Assembly (NCBI GenBank): GCA_963977015.1
Contig: CAXBMO010000009.1
Location: 1-64,000, forward strand
Source of the DNA: an uncultured bacterium
GTDB lineage: Bacteria; Verrucomicrobiota; Verrucomicrobiia; Verrucomicrobiales; DEV007
DNA length: 64,000 bases
Direction: 5' to 3'
Shown one piece after another: positions 2,332-64,000 of the stretch (the stretch's first letter is position 1; each line of letters begins with the position of its first letter). Made by a program: the position numbers and the translations under genes. The notes below the pieces were generated by a model that searched no databases, was not told the DNA's origin, and worked only from the letters and a program-made list of their open reading frames with translations.

Positions 2332-4266
2332 ATGAGTTCCGTCCTCGACGCAAAAATACCAGATGGGCCACTTGGCGAGAAGTGGACGAAGCACAAGTTT
2401 GCTTCCAAGCTGATCAATCCCAAGAACAAGCGTAAGTACAAAATTCTCGTTGTCGGTTCGGGGTTGGCTGGCGCTTCGGCTGCGGCAACTCTCAGTGAAC
2501 TGGGTTATCAGGTTAGCTGCTTTTGCTACCAGGACAGTGCGCGCCGTGCTCACTCCATTGCAGCGCAAGGAGGAATCAACGCTGCCAAGAATTATCAAAA
2601 TGATGGGGACAGTTCCTACCGTCTCTTTTACGATACCATTAAGGGAGGAGATTTCCGCTCTCGCGAAGCAAACGTTCATCGACTGGCTGAGGTCAGCGCC
2701 AACATCATTGACCAGTGTGTTGCGCAAGGAGTGCCTTTCGCTCGGGAATATGGTGGCTTGTTAGCGAACCGCTCCTTTGGTGGAGCCCAGGTTTCGCGGA
2801 CTTTCTACGCGGCAGGCCAGACCGGCCAGCAACTGCTTTTGGGAGCCTACGCCGCGCTGAACAAGCAAATTGCGACCGGCGGAGTCAAAATGTATCCAAG
2901 GACCGAGATGCTGGATCTGGTTCTGGTAGACGGCCACGCAAAGGGAATCATCACCCGGAACTTGCAAACCGGTAAAATTGAAAGCCACGCTGGAGACGCA
3001 GTCCTTCTCTGCACGGGTGGATATGGAAATGTGTTTTTCCTGTCCACCAATGCCATGGGCTGCAACGTTACGGCAACGTGGAGAGCCCACAAACGGGGGG
3101 CTTTCTTTGCCAACCCGTGTTTCACCCAGATTCACCCAACCTGCATTCCGCGTTCCGGCGACTACCAATCGAAGCTCACGTTGATGAGCGAATCGCTCCG
3201 TAATGACGGTCGCGTTTGGGTGCCCAAGAATGCTGCTGACTGCGGAAAATCGCCAGCCAGCATCCCCGAATCGGACCGCGATTACTACTTGGAGCGAAAG
3301 TATCCAAGTTTCGGAAACCTGGCTCCGCGTGACATTGCATCACGAGCTGCAAAAGAGGTTTGTGACGAAGGCAGAGGCGTTGGCCCCGCCGTCGGAGGCC
3401 AAAGCCAGGGCGTTTACCTCGACTTTTCTGAAGCAATTGAAGAATTTGGCAAAGAGACCATCGGCGCCAGGTATGGCAACTTGTTCGATATGTATCAACG
3501 GATTACCGGAGAAAGTCCGTATGATATGCCAATGCGGATCTACCCGGCAGTCCACTACACCATGGGCGGCCTCTGGGTAGACTACAATCTAATGTCAACG
3601 ATTCCCGGGTTGCACGTCCTCGGTGAGGCGAATTTCAGCGATCACGGAGCCAACCGGCTTGGAGCATCAGCGTTGATGCAGGGACTCGCGGACGGTTACT
3701 TTGTGATTCCAACAACGCTTCCCAACTATCTCGCTCCTGAAACGCCAGGGAAGATAACCACCGAAAACGACGCCTTCCGAGAAGCCGAACAGCGCGTCAA
3801 CGCGCGGGTTGAGCAACTCCTCAACATCAAAGGATCTCGCAGTGTGGATAGCTTCCACCGCGAATTGGGCCTTCTTGTTTGGGAACATTGTGGCATGGCC
3901 AGAAACAAGGAAGGTCTTCAAGAGGCCCTGCAGAAAATTCCGGCGATCAGAGATGAGTTCTGGAGCAACGTTCGCATTCCGGGCGATAGCGCAACTCTCA
4001 ACCCCGAACTGGAAAAAGCGGGGAGGGTCGCAGATTTCCTCGAGTTTGGAGAACTTATGTGTCTCGATGCTCTGGAGCGGGAAGAGTCCTGTGGCGGTCA
4101 TTTTCGCACCGAATATCAGACTCATGAAGGCGAAGCGCAGAGGCGTGATGACCAATTCGCCTATGCTGCGGCATGGGAATTCACCGGAGTTGGGACCAGA
4201 CCCAATCTTCACAAGGAACAACTGGAATTTGAAAACGTGGAACTCGCCGTGCGGAGTTACAAATAA
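2332..4266 (+). CDS. sdhA: succinate dehydrogenase flavoprotein subunit
   Basis: [11 protein letters not shown] motif, [11 protein letters not shown] covalent-FAD His, QIHPT, HYTMGG, HGANRLG. Confidence 0.97.
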
Positions 4267-4287
4267 GTTAACCATCATTCGATCGCG

Positions 4288-5040
4288 ATGAACCTCACTC
4301 TCAAAGTTTGGCGACAGGCTTCGCCCAATTCGAAAGGAATGCTCGAGTCCTACGATGCTCCTGAAATTCCTGAAACTGCCTCATTCCTCGAAATGCTCGA
4401 CATCGTCAACGAGCGGATCATCACGAAGGGGGGCGAACCAATTGCTTTTGACCACGATTGCCGAGAGGGAATCTGCGGAACGTGCTCCTTGGTGATTAAC
4501 GGAGTTTCCCATGGTCCCGAGCGAGCCACCACAACTTGCCAGTTGCACATGCGCAGCTTCAAAGATGGTGACACCATCTATGTTGAGCCATTTCGAGCAC
4601 GGGCGTTCCCGGTTGTGAAGGATCTGGTGGTAGATCGAGGAGCTTTCGACCGCATTCAACAAAGCGGGGGCTTTATTTCCGTAAGAACGGGAGCAGCCCC
4701 GGAAGCCAATGGCACTCCGGTTCCGAAAGATGATGCGGATGAAGCTTTTGCATCAGCTGCCTGCATCGGCTGCGGTGCCTGTGTCGCGGCGTGTAAGAAT
4801 GCGTCTGCGATGCTATTCGTGGGAGCAAAAATCACTCATCTGAATACCTTGCCTCAAGGCCGTCCAGAGAAGGACAAAAGGACCATCGCGATGGTTGAGC
4901 AAATGGACGAGGAAGGATTTGGCAACTGCACGAATCAATATGAATGCGAAGCCGTTTGCCCGAAAGAGATCAGTGTGGACGTGATCAGCAAAATGAATCG
5001 GGATTACTCGGCTGCCGTTGCCCGGGAATCTGCTACGTAA
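4288..5040 (+). CDS. sdhB: succinate dehydrogenase iron-sulfur subunit
   Basis: [20 protein letters not shown] and [12 protein letters not shown] Fe-S motifs. Confidence 0.97.
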
Positions 5041-5059
5041 TTCGATTGCCTTGCTCGGA

Positions 5060-5497
5060 TCAGGCGGCGTTTCGCTCGACACCCCACTGGACCAGCTTCA
5101 TCAGCCGCTCTGCGGTGTACGGCTTCGGCAATACACCAACAAAGCCCCGCTGTTTTGCTCCCTGTGCCACAACGGCCGTATCATCAAAATAGCCGCTTGT
5201 CGCAATCACTCGTGCCTTCGGATCAAATTCCCGAATCGCGTCCAGAGTCTCCAGACCACTCATTCCACCCGGCAGCGTCAGATCGAGAAGAACCAGAAGA
5301 AAAGGGGTTTGATTCGCCACACCCTGCTGGTAGTACTGCAATCCTAATTCGCCGCTGGTTGCTCCAATGGCCGTGAACCCAACCGAATCCAGAATCGCTT
5401 TTGTCATCGCGAGCACGGCTTGGTCATCATCAACAACGAGAACGTAGCTACAGCTACTACCTGGATCAGGAACAACGTCTGGAAGTATCGAATTCAT
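5060..5497 (-). CDS. single-domain response regulator (receiver)
   Basis: VLVVDDD, phospho-acceptor LLDLTLPGGMSG, ATSG, KPY; last gene of the pilus operon. Confidence 0.9.
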   Translation of the reverse strand: MNSILPDVVPDPGSSCSYVLVVDDDQAVLAMTKAILDSVGFTAIGATSGELGLQYYQQGVANQTPFLLVLLDLTLPGGMSGLETLDAIREFDPKARVIATSGYFDDTAVVAQGAKQRGFVGVLPKPYTAERLMKLVQWGVERNAA

Positions 5498-58974: not shown

Positions 58975-60378
58975 ATGGATTTTGACTTTGTTGTATTAGG
59001 CGGCGGTAGCGCGGGTTACGCGGCGGCAAGAACTGCTGTCGATCTTGGTTTGAAGACCGCGGTAATCGATGGCGCCGCAGAACTGGGAGGGCTCTGCATT
59101 CTACGCGGTTGCATGCCGAGCAAGACGCTGATTGAATCGGGAAATCGCTTCCGAACGTTGCGCCGCGCCGAAGAGTTCGGCCTCCGCGCCGACAATCTGA
59201 AAGCGCATGGCTCCGAGATCATCGCGCGAAAACGGAAGTTGATCGACGAGTTCGCGAGCTATCGCCAGGAACAGCTCCAGAGCGGAAAGTTCGAGCTCAT
59301 TCGTGGCCGCGCCAAATTTCTGAATCCGACGAAGCTCGAAGTGACGCTGAATGATGGGACCACCCAAACTGTAAAAGCGGCAACGAGCATAATTGCAACG
59401 GGCTCCGTAGTTTCCAAACTGGAATTGCCGGGTTTGGAAGAGGCCGGGTATTTGATCAGCGATGACATCCTCAACCTTGAGGAGATTCCAAAGTCCACCA
59501 TTGTGCTGGGCGGAGGACCCATTGCTCTGGAAATGGCGCACTATCTGGAGGCAGTGGGAAGCAAAGTCACGGTTGTTCAGCGAAGCAATCACGTCCTCAG
59601 CTCGATGGATGACGATTTGGCGGAAGTGGTCGAGTCCGCGTTCCGCGAACGAGGCCTGGAAGTGTATACCGGAACCAAACTAACCAAGGCCGAATCGAAG
59701 GGCGATCTCAAGGTGATCCACTTCGAGCACGAAGGTGAAGTCAAAACGGTTGAGGCTGAGCAAATTCTGCAGGCTTTGGGACGATCCCCCGCCACTGCGT
59801 CGTTGGGATTGGAAGCCGCCAGGGTCGAAACCAGTCGCGGGCGCGTCAACGTCGAGCCCACACAGGCCACCTCAGCCCCTAACATTTTCGCCGCAGGAGA
59901 CGTTTGCGGTCCGTTGGAAGTGGTTCACCTGGCAATCGAACAGGGAGAAGCCGCCGCTTTCAATGCCGCCCTTCATCTTCAGAAGACCTCCGGAATTTCA
60001 AAAACAATGGATTACCGGCTAAAGCTTTTTGGCGTCTTCACCGAGCCTCAAGTGGCTGCGGTTGGCATGAGCGAGAAGGAACTGAAGGACGCCGGAACAC
60101 CCTACGACGTCGAAACTTATCCGTTTGATGATCATGGAAAATCCATGGTGATGGGAGAAACGCACGGCTTCGTCAAGCTCATTGCCGAACCCAAAACGGG
60201 CAAGCTGTTAGGAGGCTCGGTCGTTGGCCCGGAGGCTGTGGATCTGATCCACGAAATTGTCGTGGCGATGCATTTTCACGCGACCTCCGCAGATTTGGCG
60301 CGAGTTCCTCACTATCATCCCACGCTCAGTGAGATTTGGACCTATCCAGCGGAGGAATTGGCTGAAAAAATGGCGTAA
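58975..60378 (+). CDS. class I pyridine nucleotide-disulfide oxidoreductase (dihydrolipoamide dehydrogenase-like)
   Basis: GGGSAG, GGLCILRGCMPSK, GGGPIALE, FAAGD, HYHPTLSE; no MerA C-terminal Cys pair. Confidence 0.9.
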   Translation: MDFDFVVLGGGSAGYAAARTAVDLGLKTAVIDGAAELGGLCILRGCMPSKTLIESGNRFRTLRRAEEFGLRADNLKAHGSEIIARKRKLIDEFASYRQEQLQSGKFELIRGRAKFLNPTKLEVTLNDGTTQTVKAATSIIATGSVVSKLELPGLEEAGYLISDDILNLEEIPKSTIVLGGGPIALEMAHYLEAVGSKVTVVQRSNHVLSSMDDDLAEVVESAFRERGLEVYTGTKLTKAESKGDLKVIHFEHEGEVKTVEAEQILQALGRSPATASLGLEAARVETSRGRVNVEPTQATSAPNIFAAGDVCGPLEVVHLAIEQGEAAAFNAALHLQKTSGISKTMDYRLKLFGVFTEPQVAAVGMSEKELKDAGTPYDVETYPFDDHGKSMVMGETHGFVKLIAEPKTGKLLGGSVVGPEAVDLIHEIVVAMHFHATSADLARVPHYHPTLSEIWTYPAEELAEKMA

Positions 60379-60544
60379 TTTTCGCTTCCCTTTTGATGAA
60401 TTACCGTGAGGATCACGTCTGTCCAGACAAGCAGCCGACAACTGAATCCTAAGATTCGGAGTTGCTTTGAAGAACACTCTAACTATGAAACGTCAGTCCG
60501 AGTTGGACATTGACATCTCCATAACAACTTGATTTAGTTGCGCC

Positions 60545-61072
60545 GTGCTCAAGCAAATTATCAACCAAGATCCTGCAGGGTCCAAGCCGCCACCAGCGCC
60601 TGCGCCAGAGCCAGCTCCGGCACCCGCTGCCTACGCCGAACCTGCACCGCAAGCCCAAACCGTACAACAACCGTCTACAACTGCCAGCCTGATGAGTTCC
60701 AGTAAAAATATCTTGTCGAATGATGTCGAAATCGTCGGAAATCTAAAATTCTCTCACGATTTGATCATTGATGGGAAAATCGAAGGTGAAGTTAATTCAG
60801 ATGGCAACCTGACCGTTGGCGAAAACGCCAAGGTCAAAGGGGAAATCAAAACGAAATCCGTGACGGTTTTCGGCAAGGTTGAAGGAAACATTACGGTTAC
60901 CGACCGCTGCGAGCTGAAATCCAACGCCGAATTGGTTGGAGACATCCGCGCTGGAACACTTTCTATCGAAGAGGGAGCTGCCTTCATGGGAGCTTCAACC
61001 GTTGGCGCTGCCGCCAAAGCATCCACACCTCCAGGAGGGGGATTGCCAAAGCCACCAGCACCACCTCAGTAA
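60545..61072 (+). CDS. bactofilin (polymer-forming cytoskeletal protein)
   Basis: Pro/Ala-rich N-tail, then ILSNDVEIVGNL...IIDGKIEGEV...VFGKVEGNI...LVGDI...LSIEEGAAFMG. Confidence 0.93.
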   Translation: MLKQIINQDPAGSKPPPAPAPEPAPAPAAYAEPAPQAQTVQQPSTTASLMSSSKNILSNDVEIVGNLKFSHDLIIDGKIEGEVNSDGNLTVGENAKVKGEIKTKSVTVFGKVEGNITVTDRCELKSNAELVGDIRAGTLSIEEGAAFMGASTVGAAAKASTPPGGGLPKPPAPPQ

Positions 61073-62248
61073 TTTCAGGAGCCGCAAGGCTCTTACCTCC
61101 CGCTTTTCAGTACGGACACGTCAAAAACAGCGTCGAACAAGAATTTCGTCAAGGCCGTCTGCCCCCATTGTGGGGCAGACCAACTTGAGCCTTCGATCGC
61201 TGTTTCTACTTTCTGCAAGAACTGCGGAGAGCATTTCAAGCTGACGCCTCCCCCCAAACGTTCCTTTGGGTTTGGGATCTTCGGAAGCCGTCAGGATAAG
61301 TCGCCCTTCCAACCCGCCGTTGATCGACCGGTCAGTCAGACCGAGTCCCTGACCAACGCCCCGTCCAAATCAGATTCCGGCGATGAATTGGAGTCTGATG
61401 AAGACAATCACGACGATTTCAACCAAACCGCTGATGGCGTGGAATGGCATGAGGCAGATGAGTTCGTGCCGCCACCACAACCGCCTCCCCGGCCTCTGCC
61501 CTCCCCTCCACCAATTCGCCAGAATGAAGGGGACGAAGTGGAAATCGATGGACAGCGTTTTGTCGAAGTCGAAGCCTACACCACGGTAGAAACTGCCGGG
61601 GCTCCTTTCACTCCGAAAAAGCCTGATCCCAAGGATCGGAAAATTCTCTGTGTCGGCTGTCGCGAGACTCTGTTTGTCAGCAAGCACGCGACATCGACGA
61701 TTTGCCCCCATTGCAGCGAATACTGCAGTTTGGAAAACTTCACCATCGCCAATCACCGGCGGGAGAACATCCGGACCCGGGGCAATGTGGCGATCCAACG
61801 CAAGGCCTCACTCACCGCCAGCGAAGTCATTTGCGATAACCTGAAAGTCTACGGAAAGATCTCCGGGAAAATCGATTGCACAGGAGACGCCTTCTTCCAT
61901 TGCTCTGGGAAAGTTGTGGGGAGTCTTCGCTGCAAGCATTTGATCATTCACAAGATCTGCAACCTCACGTTCCTGCCGGGAATTCACGCCGAAACGGCGG
62001 AGATTCACGGCGAAGTCAAAGGTGACATCATCTGCGACGGGAAGATCAAGATCACGAAAACCGCTACGGTCATTGGCGATTGCACCGCCCCGACGGTCGT
62101 TCTCGAAGATGGAGGTAACCTTTGCGGTCAGATGCGCTTCATGAAGCCTGACCAGGAGATGATGGCGGAATACGCCCGCCGTGCTCAGGAGGCACATGAC
62201 GAACTTTTTGACGAGGAAACGGAAGACGTCGCCGACTCGGAGGAGTAA
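61073..62248 (+). CDS. zinc-ribbon-containing tandem bactofilin; start unresolved
   Basis: Frame open from 61073 to stop 62248; CPHC-x14-CKNC (61160-61225) lies upstream of the first canonical start (TTG 61388); second ribbon CVGC-x14-CPHC; two bactofilin repeats. Confidence 0.85.
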   Translation, partial: FQEPQGSYLPLFSTDTSKTASNKNFVKAVCPHCGADQLEPSIAVSTFCKNCGEHFKLTPPPKRSFGFGIFGSRQDKSPFQPAVDRPVSQTESLTNAPSKSDSGDELESDEDNHDDFNQTADGVEWHEADEFVPPPQPPPRPLPSPPPIRQNEGDEVEIDGQRFVEVEAYTTVETAGAPFTPKKPDPKDRKILCVGCRETLFVSKHATSTICPHCSEYCSLENFTIANHRRENIRTRGNVAIQRKASLTASEVICDNLKVYGKISGKIDCTGDAFFHCSGKVVGSLRCKHLIIHKICNLTFLPGIHAETAEIHGEVKGDIICDGKIKITKTATVIGDCTAPTVVLEDGGNLCGQMRFMKPDQEMMAEYARRAQEAHDELFDEETEDVADSEE

Positions 62249-62435
62249 TTTAGCCTCTTTTTCGGAACAAGCGCTCGAAATAAGCCCGCGCGTTGGAGCC
62301 GCGGGCCTATAACCACTCGATTTCCAAGATTTTTGAGACCAACAATTGCTCCGAATTGCACCAGATCGAAGAAAAGTGAGAAATAGGCAATTTTAAGCTT
62401 GCCTTTTCTTCAGCTTTCTGCATGTTCCTCACGTC

Positions 62436-62532
62436 TTCAGCAACTGCTGAAACATCAGGCAGCCCGATTGATTTGTGTTTTGTGAGTTTGGGGGTTTTTT
62501 CTCACGGAACCATCAATCGGGCTGCTTTTTTT
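62436..62532 (+). ncRNA. candidate small RNA or attenuator ending in an intrinsic terminator
   Basis: Hairpin TTCAGC/GCTGAA, then 14-bp perfect stem GCAGCCCGATTGAT/ATCAATCGGGCTGC enclosing a 10-bp inner stem, then T7. Confidence 0.45.
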
Positions 62533-62594
62533 ATGCCCTGAGCTTAGTTTTTTCTGGTGCGTTAGGCGGCTGTCCTATTAAACTGAGCCGCCCC

Positions 62595-64000
62595 ATGTAT
62601 CGCCCCTTTTTGTTGTTGTTGGCGGTCGTAACCCCTCAAGCGACCGGTCAGGAGATCTATCTCAGCCCCCTTTCCCGTTTCGAGTTCCTGTTGGAAACGA
62701 AGCCCATGCAGGAGCGTTGCCAAAAGGAGATCTGGCTCGCCAACGCGCTTGTCCAAAGTTCTCAATCCCGGCTCGCCAAGATGGAAGACCTCAAGGAAAA
62801 GGGATTCAGCTCAACGCCGGTCGTCGAAAAGCAGCGGCAGCGGGTCGCCGGGAACCAATCCCTCGTTCTGATGTGGCAAACATTTGCCCGTGCCGTCTCA
62901 ACTGCGGAAACTCGCGTTCAGGAAAGTTCTTCGCCCGCCTTTACGAATCAGACTTCCGTCCTAGTTCCCGGGATCACTCAACGAATCGGGAACATCAACC
63001 TGTTCACATTACGGTGCCAGCCCGGCGAAGCTCAACTGCAATCCGCGATCGCGTATCTGGAAGCACGCAAAGTCCCGACAAATCTCGGGAAAAAACTGGG
63101 CGAGTTGGACCGAAACTTTCTTTCCGGATTGGGCGAAGCCATTGAGCAGTTGAATTCGCCTTATGCGAGTGACGTTGGCCGCTATCAGTCCCAATTGTTT
63201 CACGCAGCATCCCATCACGCTGACTCTGAGCATGGTATCGAACAACTGGAACGTGACATTGCCCGTCTCAAACGAGCGGTCGATGACGGCGCTCTCGAGA
63301 ACGTGGCGAGCTTTCCTTGGCTCAGCCAACCACTCGGCCTGCTCGGGTCCGGCTGGCGTTGCGGGACCGAAGCTTCGCCCGAAGTCATCGCACTGTGTTT
63401 GCCGATAGCCAAAGCTCAAGAAAGCGCGACGGCACCCATTGAGCTCGCAAAGCTTCAACTGGAATTGGCGGAACATCGTTTAAAGGTGAAAACGCAGGCT
63501 CGAACCCGAAATGTCGCCTCCGATCTGGAGTTGGAAGCCGCACAGATTCAACTTACGGTCGCCAGAACCCAGCTTGCCGCGAACCAAGCCTCAGCTGCGG
63601 GCCATCGACTCCGCTATGAGCAACTTCTTGGGTTGCTCGATCGCCCCCCCGTCTCCCACGGACCACCTCACTTGACTGAACTGGCCCAGATCGAGAAGTT
63701 CGCGAACGCGAAACTCGAGCCGTTGCTGGATTCGCCACAGTTTGTCTATGGATGGCTGAAAAACCTGGAAGGCTGGCTTCGGGCTTGGAACAGCTGGGAA
63801 AACGCCAGGCAAAATCAGCAGTTTGAGGAAACGCAAACCGAGCGCATTCTCGCGCTCAAGAAGACGACCGAAAATGAGCGGCGCAAGGTAACGCTCAAGG
63901 CCCAATTGGCCCGGGCCGTTTGCAACGCAGCCCGGGAACAGCTTCACCTCAAAGCACTGGAGTTCGACCAATGGATCGCCATCGCCGAATTGGCGAGAAA
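62595..64000 (+). CDS. TolC/outer-membrane-efflux-like coiled-coil protein, truncated by window end
   Basis: Not in the ORF track (no stop in window); hand translation MYRPFLLLLAVVTPQATG|QEI...; OEP-like ELAKLQLELAEHRL...VASDLELEAAQIQL...YEQLLG. Confidence 0.7.
   Translation, partial: MYRPFLLLLAVVTPQATGQEIYLSPLSRFEFLLETKPMQERCQKEIWLANALVQSSQSRLAKMEDLKEKGFSSTPVVEKQRQRVAGNQSLVLMWQTFARAVSTAETRVQESSSPAFTNQTSVLVPGITQRIGNINLFTLRCQPGEAQLQSAIAYLEARKVPTNLGKKLGELDRNFLSGLGEAIEQLNSPYASDVGRYQSQLFHAASHHADSEHGIEQLERDIARLKRAVDDGALENVASFPWLSQPLGLLGSGWRCGTEASPEVIALCLPIAKAQESATAPIELAKLQLELAEHRLKVKTQARTRNVASDLELEAAQIQLTVARTQLAANQASAAGHRLRYEQLLGLLDRPPVSHGPPHLTELAQIEKFANAKLEPLLDSPQFVYGWLKNLEGWLRAWNSWENARQNQQFEETQTERILALKKTTENERRKVTLKAQLARAVCNAAREQLHLKALEFDQWIAIAELAR

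Follow-up and report, generated by a model that had tools for sequence, protein, structure and literature searches.

Near the end of a 64,000-nucleotide (nt) stretch of DNA (the window) from an uncultured member of the Verrucomicrobiales, whose genome, G000, is a metagenome-derived assembly of 51 contigs, two bactofilin reading frames lie one behind the other on the forward strand. The second of these, b2, has no usual start codon ahead of its first domain, and comparison with related genomes suggests that its translation most likely begins at an ACG. The region is best explained as an operon of two bactofilin genes, b1 and then b2. By translation of its open reading frame (ORF) and by Pfam, b1 (60545..61072) is a canonical bactofilin gene of 175 amino acids (aa) with a GTG start and a TAA stop at 61070-61072, its 3' end reading CAG TAA (61067-61072). 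The N-terminus MLKQIINQ with its GTG start is conserved among relatives, and the GTG is kept throughout family f1. After this stop the frame of b1 is open again from 61073 to a second stop at 62246-62248, and the Pfam Bactofilin family (PF04519) matches both b1 (E 5e-28) and the downstream ORF (E 1e-19) above its 27.9-bit cut-off. In the first 20 loci compared, the first zinc ribbon of b2 and its bactofilin part share one open frame, with a b1 homologue upstream.

The frame between the two genes runs for 105 codons (61073-61387) without an in-frame ATG, GTG or TTG, the first of these being TTG 61388; by eye, none of the three occurs in any forward frame from 61073 to about 61165. Given that they account for 5.7% of codons in the long ORFs of G000, a run of 105 codons lacking all of them has a probability of about 0.002. 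Within this stretch lies zinc ribbon 1 (CPHC-x14-CKNC, 61160..61225), which has the same spacing and the same A-x-S-T-hydrophobic motif as zinc ribbon 2 further downstream (CVGC-x14-CPHC, 61649..61714). A first search detected b2 in 34/41 related genomes; an alignment of 19 orthologues (A1), used as a search profile, then identified a b2 orthologue in 329/401 genomes of the order (E <= 1e-10). All eight ribbon cysteines are invariant across the 19 orthologues, the invariant residues being C3, P4, C6, Q10, E12, C21, C24 and G25 in ribbon 1 and the cysteines C166, C169, C184 and C187 in ribbon 2. Between G000 and its nearest relative, the congener G003, the N-terminus and ribbon 1 differ with a synonymous divergence (pS) of 0.60 and a non-synonymous divergence (pN) of 0.012. 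Since the ribbon is invariant in orthologues and pN is far below pS, the comparison indicates that the 105 start-less codons are coding, that they encode ribbon 1 and the linker of b2, and that they are under strong purifying selection. An earlier reading of this DNA, made from its letters only (the sequence-only reading), had described b1 ending in CAG TAA, the single TAA between two in-frame bactofilin ORFs, the 105 open codons without ATG, GTG or TTG up to TTG 61388, the likeness of the two ribbons and the coding nature of the spacer, and each of these was confirmed by the sequence, its translation or the orthologues.

If started at the ACG proposed below, b2 (61112..62248) encodes a two-zinc-ribbon bactofilin of 378 aa, as judged from its translation, its orthologues and a structural model. 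The AlphaFold model built on A1 has a mean predicted local distance difference test score (pLDDT) of 77 and places ribbon 1 (pLDDT ~88) first, followed by a disordered segment at residues 39-151 (~110 residues), ribbon 2 (pLDDT > 90), which packs beside the beta-helix, then the beta-helix domain itself (61739..62140; PF04519 E 1e-19; strands at residues 196-329, pLDDT 92-98) and a C-terminal helix. Pfam zinc-ribbon matches are weak and all below their cut-offs; in the model, each ribbon has two CxxC knuckles about 14 residues apart with short strands at both (pLDDT 87-95), as expected of a zinc ribbon. The beta-helix region (61739-62140) is itself unusually rich in cysteine, with about nine residues, among which several, such as C227 and C260 of A1, are conserved.

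Within genus g1, represented by four genomes (G000 to G003), an ACG at 61112..61114 stands 16 codons before the first cysteine of ribbon 1 (Cys1) in 4/4 genomes, with flanking codons that vary and with synonymous sites near saturation (pS 0.6-1.0). In G003 an in-frame TAA lies one codon 5' of this ACG, and the sequence further 5' differs from that of G000 by indels. The start codons taken as annotated for bacteria were ATG, GTG, TTG, CTG, ATT, ATC and ATA, following the available part of 10.1101/063800; in G000 and G003 none of these occurs in the open frame before Cys1, and G000 has no CTG, ATT, ATC or ATA within 29 codons before Cys1. On this comparison, translation of b2 most likely starts at ACG 61112-61114 and not at ACG 61118, with a probability of roughly 0.6. 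A search of metagenomes for additional members of the genus returned only one scaffold (L181), identical to the window, and when cultured relatives with ACG or CTG starts were sought, all records examined were metagenome assemblies.

The best surviving alternative is that b2 starts at another non-canonical codon of G000, either the second in-frame ACG (61118..61120) or a downstream AAG. The two ACGs are 6 nt apart and inseparable by sequence alone, and the second is also in frame and common to G003. Nevertheless, this alternative is unlikely: all four genomes have ACG at 61112, but at 61118 G001 has AAC and G002 has CCT, for which reason 61112 is preferred, and conservation is likewise lacking for the in-frame AAG codons. 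The sequence-only reading had favoured non-canonical initiation with 61118 as its best candidate; the kind of initiation it proposed is supported, but the codon it chose was the wrong one, being variable among the relatives (ACG, AAC or CCT) and in none of the four genomes an ATG.

The start region was also surveyed outside the genus by right-aligning the codons 5' of the first cysteine in 128 genomes, of which 113 were usable; in the other 15 the ribbon pattern was not found in the fetched stretch (14) or the sequence ran off the contig (1). Most orthologues have a GTG start and the common N-terminus M-F/L-G/R-K/R, as in 'GTG ttc gga aaa...', located 14 (f1 g2) or 23-24 (f5) codons before Cys1. 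Of the 113, 24 have no ATG, GTG or TTG before Cys1, and 5/113 have no annotated-type start at all; judging from their sequences, the likely starts of these 24 are ACG, ATT, or CTG preceded by GGAGG. In g6, all six genomes lack ATG, GTG and TTG, three lack any annotated-type start, and 5/6 read 'ACG tta/cta ggt/agt aaa ctc', so that the ACG (x-L-G-K-L) is the counterpart of the GTG in 'GTG ctc ggc aaa ctt' (M-L-G-K-L) of f5 g26. At locus L171 of the same genus (G307), TCG stands in the ACG column with an ATT six codons upstream, possibly a swap of weak starts. Both genomes of g5 carry 'ACG ttt gag cga' (x-F-E-R), with three non-synonymous changes in the nine codons that end with ACG and none in the 15 codons following ttt. 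Likewise, ACG is present in both genomes of g3, where non-synonymous changes affect 8/12 codons before it and 1/15 after it (Fisher P 0.003). Both genomes of g19 lack a canonical start and read 'ATT ttt ggg aaa aag'. CTG is found in two genera of family f4: 7/7 genomes of g25 lack a canonical start and have CTG, with GGAGG or GAGGA 7-9 nt upstream in G027, G054, G047 and G033, and 3/6 of g32 lack one, with GGAGG and then CTG in most members read. Finally, ACG is present in 4/4 genomes of g11, an ambiguous case because five codons later there is an ATA (in one member an ATG).

As expected of a near-cognate start, conserved coding sequence reaches further 5' than any canonical start, in G000 as in the other start-less orthologues, and the candidate codon is conserved while its neighbours vary (g1 4/4, g6 5/6, g3 2/2, g5 2/2). 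Agreement with the start column of orthologues is mixed: the ACG or ATT falls in it in g6 (x-LGKL against MLGKL), g5 (x-FER) and g19 (ATT-FGKK), but in g1 the tail does not align to the motif. The pattern of changes indicates that protein-level conservation begins at the ACG in three other genera (g6, g3 and g5). As far as can be judged from these alignments, the b2 family carries weak start codons, plausibly keeping b2 scarce relative to b1.

Across family f1, an ACG occurs 14-19 codons before Cys1 in 9/17 genera, where codon usage predicts ~10% (binomial P 1.5e-5, or 5e-4 with the background taken as 16%), but these P values overstate the evidence because the genera are related. The codon at this position is always ACG and never another threonine codon, and ACG makes up only 36% of threonine codons. 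The relatedness of the genera is one of several points that weigh against initiation at ACG. In genus g1 itself, G001 has a TTG and G002 a CTG six codons 5' of the ACG, so the ACG there could be an ordinary threonine codon. The TAA that precedes the ACG in G003 is read from a single low-coverage contig of a 59%-complete genome. Furthermore, no alignment of the g1 N-terminal tail (TDTSKTASNKNF) with the MF/MLGK motif is possible, and the argument that ACG occupies the GTG column therefore rests on the other genera. Among those, the sixth g6 genome has TCG at the ACG position, and in g11 an ATA located 13 codons before Cys1, replaced by ATG in one member, is a rival candidate. ACG also occurs in the same window as a plain threonine codon behind a clear GTG in 9/29 genomes of g30. 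The ACG lineages form successive branches of the protein tree and not one clade, so several origins or several losses are needed. Lastly, E. coli initiates poorly at ACG.

In G000, b1 and b2 share a frame and only one TAA separates them, which raises the possibility of programmed readthrough of the b1 stop, which would yield a 567-aa b1-b2 fusion besides the 175-aa b1. This is very unlikely. The relative frames were surveyed in 19 loci with b1 upstream (L008 was excluded, its best b1 hit lying inside b2), and b2 is in frame 0, 1 or 2 with respect to the b1 stop in 9, 6 and 4 of them. The in-frame share is slightly greater than one third, and in G307 (g6) the b1 TAA is also in frame with 42 open codons of b2. 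Within genus g1, however, G000 is the only genome with a single in-frame stop: in G001 and G002 the two genes differ in frame, and the b2 frame contains an additional TGA past the end of b1; in G003 the genes are separated by both a TAG and a TAA. Readthrough is unsupported because the frame varies even within the genus and because of these extra in-frame stops. In addition, the gap between the b1 stop and the open b2 frame varies from 0 to 122 nt, the stretch from the TAA to the ACG lacks protein-level conservation and carries indels when G000 is compared with G003, a search of Rfam for known recoding elements gave no relevant match, and the hairpin at 61157-61180 lies 85 nt past the stop. 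Readthrough had been the first option of the sequence-only reading, and the continuity of the frame across the stop on which it depends is conserved neither in the 19 loci nor within g1. Ribosome hopping from CAG 61067 to CAG 61076 was also considered and rejected, since by eye it has no counterpart in relatives.

A second alternative, about as improbable as readthrough, is that ribbon 1 is no longer translated in the genus and that the only product is the 286-aa protein from TTG 61388, or one from a later GTG. The gene-finder call is indeed of 286 aa (P0001), and the genus shares a GTG within the conserved 'GVEW' motif. Nevertheless, ribbon 1 is under purifying selection, as the pN and pS values given above indicate, with all cysteines kept and an open frame in 4/4 genomes. 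TTG 61388 lacks conservation: G002 and G003 have no start-type codon there, and their first one downstream of the ACG is codon 111 or 110. Moreover, the six genomes of g6 are equally start-less and their ribbon is intact.

Slightly less probable still is C-to-U editing of the mRNA, which would turn the encoded ACG into AUG and allow canonical initiation. Editing would explain the strict conservation of ACG over other threonine codons, and the creation of AUG starts from ACG is known in chloroplasts, as described in the available part of PMC9845219. This does not fit the relatives, in which CTG and ATT stand at the equivalent place and are inexplicable by editing, nor is there a shared context around the ACG between genera that could guide an editing factor. 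To our knowledge, no C-to-U editing system acting on mRNA is known in bacteria. Least credible of all is an assembly or sequencing error that hides a normal start codon. Although G000 is a metagenome-derived assembly of 51 contigs, three runs from two studies (X1, X2 and X4) yielded contigs identical over 61070-61132, and X1 is a distinct assembly, as its differences at 60997 and 61012 show. Scaffold L181 also agrees with G000 at every position of 60331-62645, though it may not be independent. The ACG is shared by three other g1 species, two of them also without a canonical start. The error or recent mutation entertained by the sequence-only reading is thus not supported.

Returning to initiation at ACG 61112, its upstream context is compact. 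The spacer between the b1 stop and the proposed start (61073..61111) measures 39 nt and contains AGGAG at 61077-61081 and TACCTCCC at 61094-61101. The latter stands 10 nt 5' of the ACG and matches the 3' end of the G000 16S rRNA letter for letter (the anti-Shine-Dalgarno; the 16S end is GGATCACCTCCTTTCT). A similar CACCTCC-like motif occurs 4-10 nt before the ACG in 4/4 g1 genomes and in genus g39, in different reading frames; because the frames differ, the motif is taken to act at the nucleotide level. The idea that it pairs with an upstream GGAG was rejected, the pairing not being conserved by eye. No promoter-like site was detected in the 61073..61111 spacer, and the absence of a promoter from a spacer of 39 nt makes coupling to b1 termination plausible. 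By hand count, the distance from the b1 stop to the ACG is about 25-45 nt in the genus and longer in other ACG lineages, up to ~166 nt in g3; given these longer gaps, coupling to b1 cannot be a general requirement. G000 has no Shine-Dalgarno enrichment, with motifs at 68/480 unambiguous starts compared with a background of 13.6%, as counted on a crude set of starts.

It is suggested that the ordinary initiator tRNA would read the near-cognate ACG 61112 with one mismatch and insert methionine. Such initiation would be weak, and ribosomes finishing b1 39 nt upstream may supply the initiating subunits through translational coupling. b2 would then be made in a small and constant proportion to b1, and a low b2:b1 ratio may be the purpose of the arrangement; the low ratio of a minor bactofilin proposed by the sequence-only reading would accord with the weak starts seen across the family. 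According to the available part of 10.1101/063800, green fluorescent protein started with ACG in E. coli gives N-terminal methionine peptides. An initiator-like tRNA-Thr(CGU) was sought in G000, and the two tRNA-Thr(CGU) genes present have no initiator features by eye. In the initiator tRNA (contig C2:80297-80371, L115/L116), an A29:U41 pair (tcagg/cctga) replaces the first of the three anticodon-stem G:C pairs. The same pair is present in 16/16 initiator tRNAs compared, GTG-started relatives included, so it is not correlated with start type and is at most a permissive background. The acceptor end of the initiator tRNA also varies: in G000, G001, G010 and G018 it is U1-G72 with U73, and in the other members C1 or U1 is opposite A72 (or U72 or C72), with A73. 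Outside the window, contig C32 holds a dense tRNA array (~3298-5337; at least 17 tRNA genes on the contig by aragorn) that includes an atypical tRNA-Thr(CGU), a tRNA-Ile(UAU) and two tRNA-Met(CAU), and that may be mobile or phage-derived.

Two features of the 5' part of b2 were considered as signs of, or aids to, initiation and were set aside. A 9-bp GC hairpin over the first CxxC knuckle (GTCTGCCCC/GGGGCAGAC; 61157..61180, arms 61157-61165 and 61172-61180) was present as the sequence-only reading had described it, and it forms in the minimum-energy predicted fold. Five sequences retain it in part, with a single compensatory pair, and a strong form is confined to genera g1, g39, g37 and part of g18. 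As an aid to initiation it was rejected, given that its strength is unlinked to start type in 113 genomes and that it begins 45 nt after the ACG; it is probably in large part a by-product of the codons for V-C-P-x-C-G-A-D. Between G000 and G003, 3/25 of the first b2 codons (61112-61186) differ, and most of the next 51 have synonymous changes. Low synonymous change at the 5' end was likewise rejected as a sign specific to ACG: GTG-started orthologues have similar constraint, and it therefore seems to be a property of the family. On the other side of the locus, just 5' of b1, a 467-aa ORF (58975-60378, forward strand) resembles, by eye, a pyridine-nucleotide disulfide oxidoreductase. The C-terminal coding part of this ORF also opens locus L010, from another genus, and for this reason the neighbourhood seems conserved.

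If b2 starts at the ACG, its public annotation is incomplete. The annotated start is TTG 61388..61390, which gives a 286-aa product without ribbon 1 in place of the 378 aa from ACG, and the public entries for G000, G001 and G002 (P0001-P0003) are all truncated: P0001 has 286 aa from that TTG, P0002 has 371 aa and starts within ribbon 1, and P0003 has 242 aa and starts in the linker. Gene finders thus strip ribbon 1, and domain or family surveys of bactofilins that rely on such entries miss the two-ribbon architecture. Initiation at the ACG would moreover mean that a naturally conserved bacterial initiation codon lies outside the accepted set, with comparative support in several genera, and that a whole gene family could be tuned by moving among the weak starts GTG, CTG, ATT and ACG. 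b2 would then be a concrete test case for how ribosomes choose a start in a genome without Shine-Dalgarno enrichment. A broader reading, that ACG is a genuinely maintained start in the Verrucomicrobiales, that start selection there is unusually permissive with this family drifting among GTG, CTG, ATT and ACG, and that other genes are mis-annotated likewise, is unlikely on present evidence. The A29:U41 pair of the initiator tRNA is a possible reason for such permissiveness. Were this broader reading true, other genes would start at codons that gene finders never consider. A genome-wide scan of codon statistics for further start-less extensions was uninformative, b2 ranking 57th and the top hits looking non-coding.

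b2 was compared with several known systems. No natural ACG start in a bacterium came up in a literature search, which is not proof of absence. The eukaryotic and viral cases are close in the decoding step: in Sendai virus P/C and in mammalian mRNAs, initiator Met-tRNA reportedly reads ACG to give a low-abundance product, and b2 resembles them in the proposed reading of ACG by initiator Met-tRNA. Those starts need a scanning 40S subunit and a Kozak context, whereas b2 lies in a bacterial operon of a genome without Shine-Dalgarno enrichment. Programmed stop-codon readthrough shares with this locus two in-frame ORFs separated by one stop, but differs in that the arrangement is not conserved within the genus. 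The editing of ACG to AUG in plant organelles is alike in having a genomic ACG at the start position (PMC9845219, available part). The difference is that its machinery is not known from any bacterium.

As bactofilins, b1 and b2 both carry the PF04519 beta-helix, and b2 is unlike those described in adding two zinc ribbons and a long disordered linker; the words 'zinc' and 'Verrucomicrobia' have no occurrence in the main text of PMC12448750. The same source, in its available part, gives MFSKKKK as the membrane-targeting consensus of bactofilins. Such a peptide is common but not obligatory in the family; it is present neither in b1 (MLKQIINQ) nor in b2 of G000 (x-DTSKTASNKNF, without Phe2 or Lys4). 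Most b2 orthologues begin MFGK, MFRK or MLGK, which resembles the consensus.

In bacteria, the comparison is with infC, the gene for initiation factor 3 (IF3), and other genes with AUU, AUA, AUC or CUG starts. In G000, infC (contig C30:16651-17133, reverse strand, L191) has a basic tail, AKKRRKFNRPRR, upstream of its first ATG, preceded by ATC and ATA, and from this sequence it probably also starts non-canonically, at ATC or ATA. ACG is not among the start codons that the available part of 10.1101/063800 gives as annotated for model bacterial genomes. b2 differs from infC-type starts in placing the mismatch at the middle position of the codon, and from infC itself in having no sign of a feedback loop. 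In common with these genes, b2 would combine a conserved codon other than AUG, GUG or UUG with the initiator tRNA and with weak, potentially IF3-sensitive translation.

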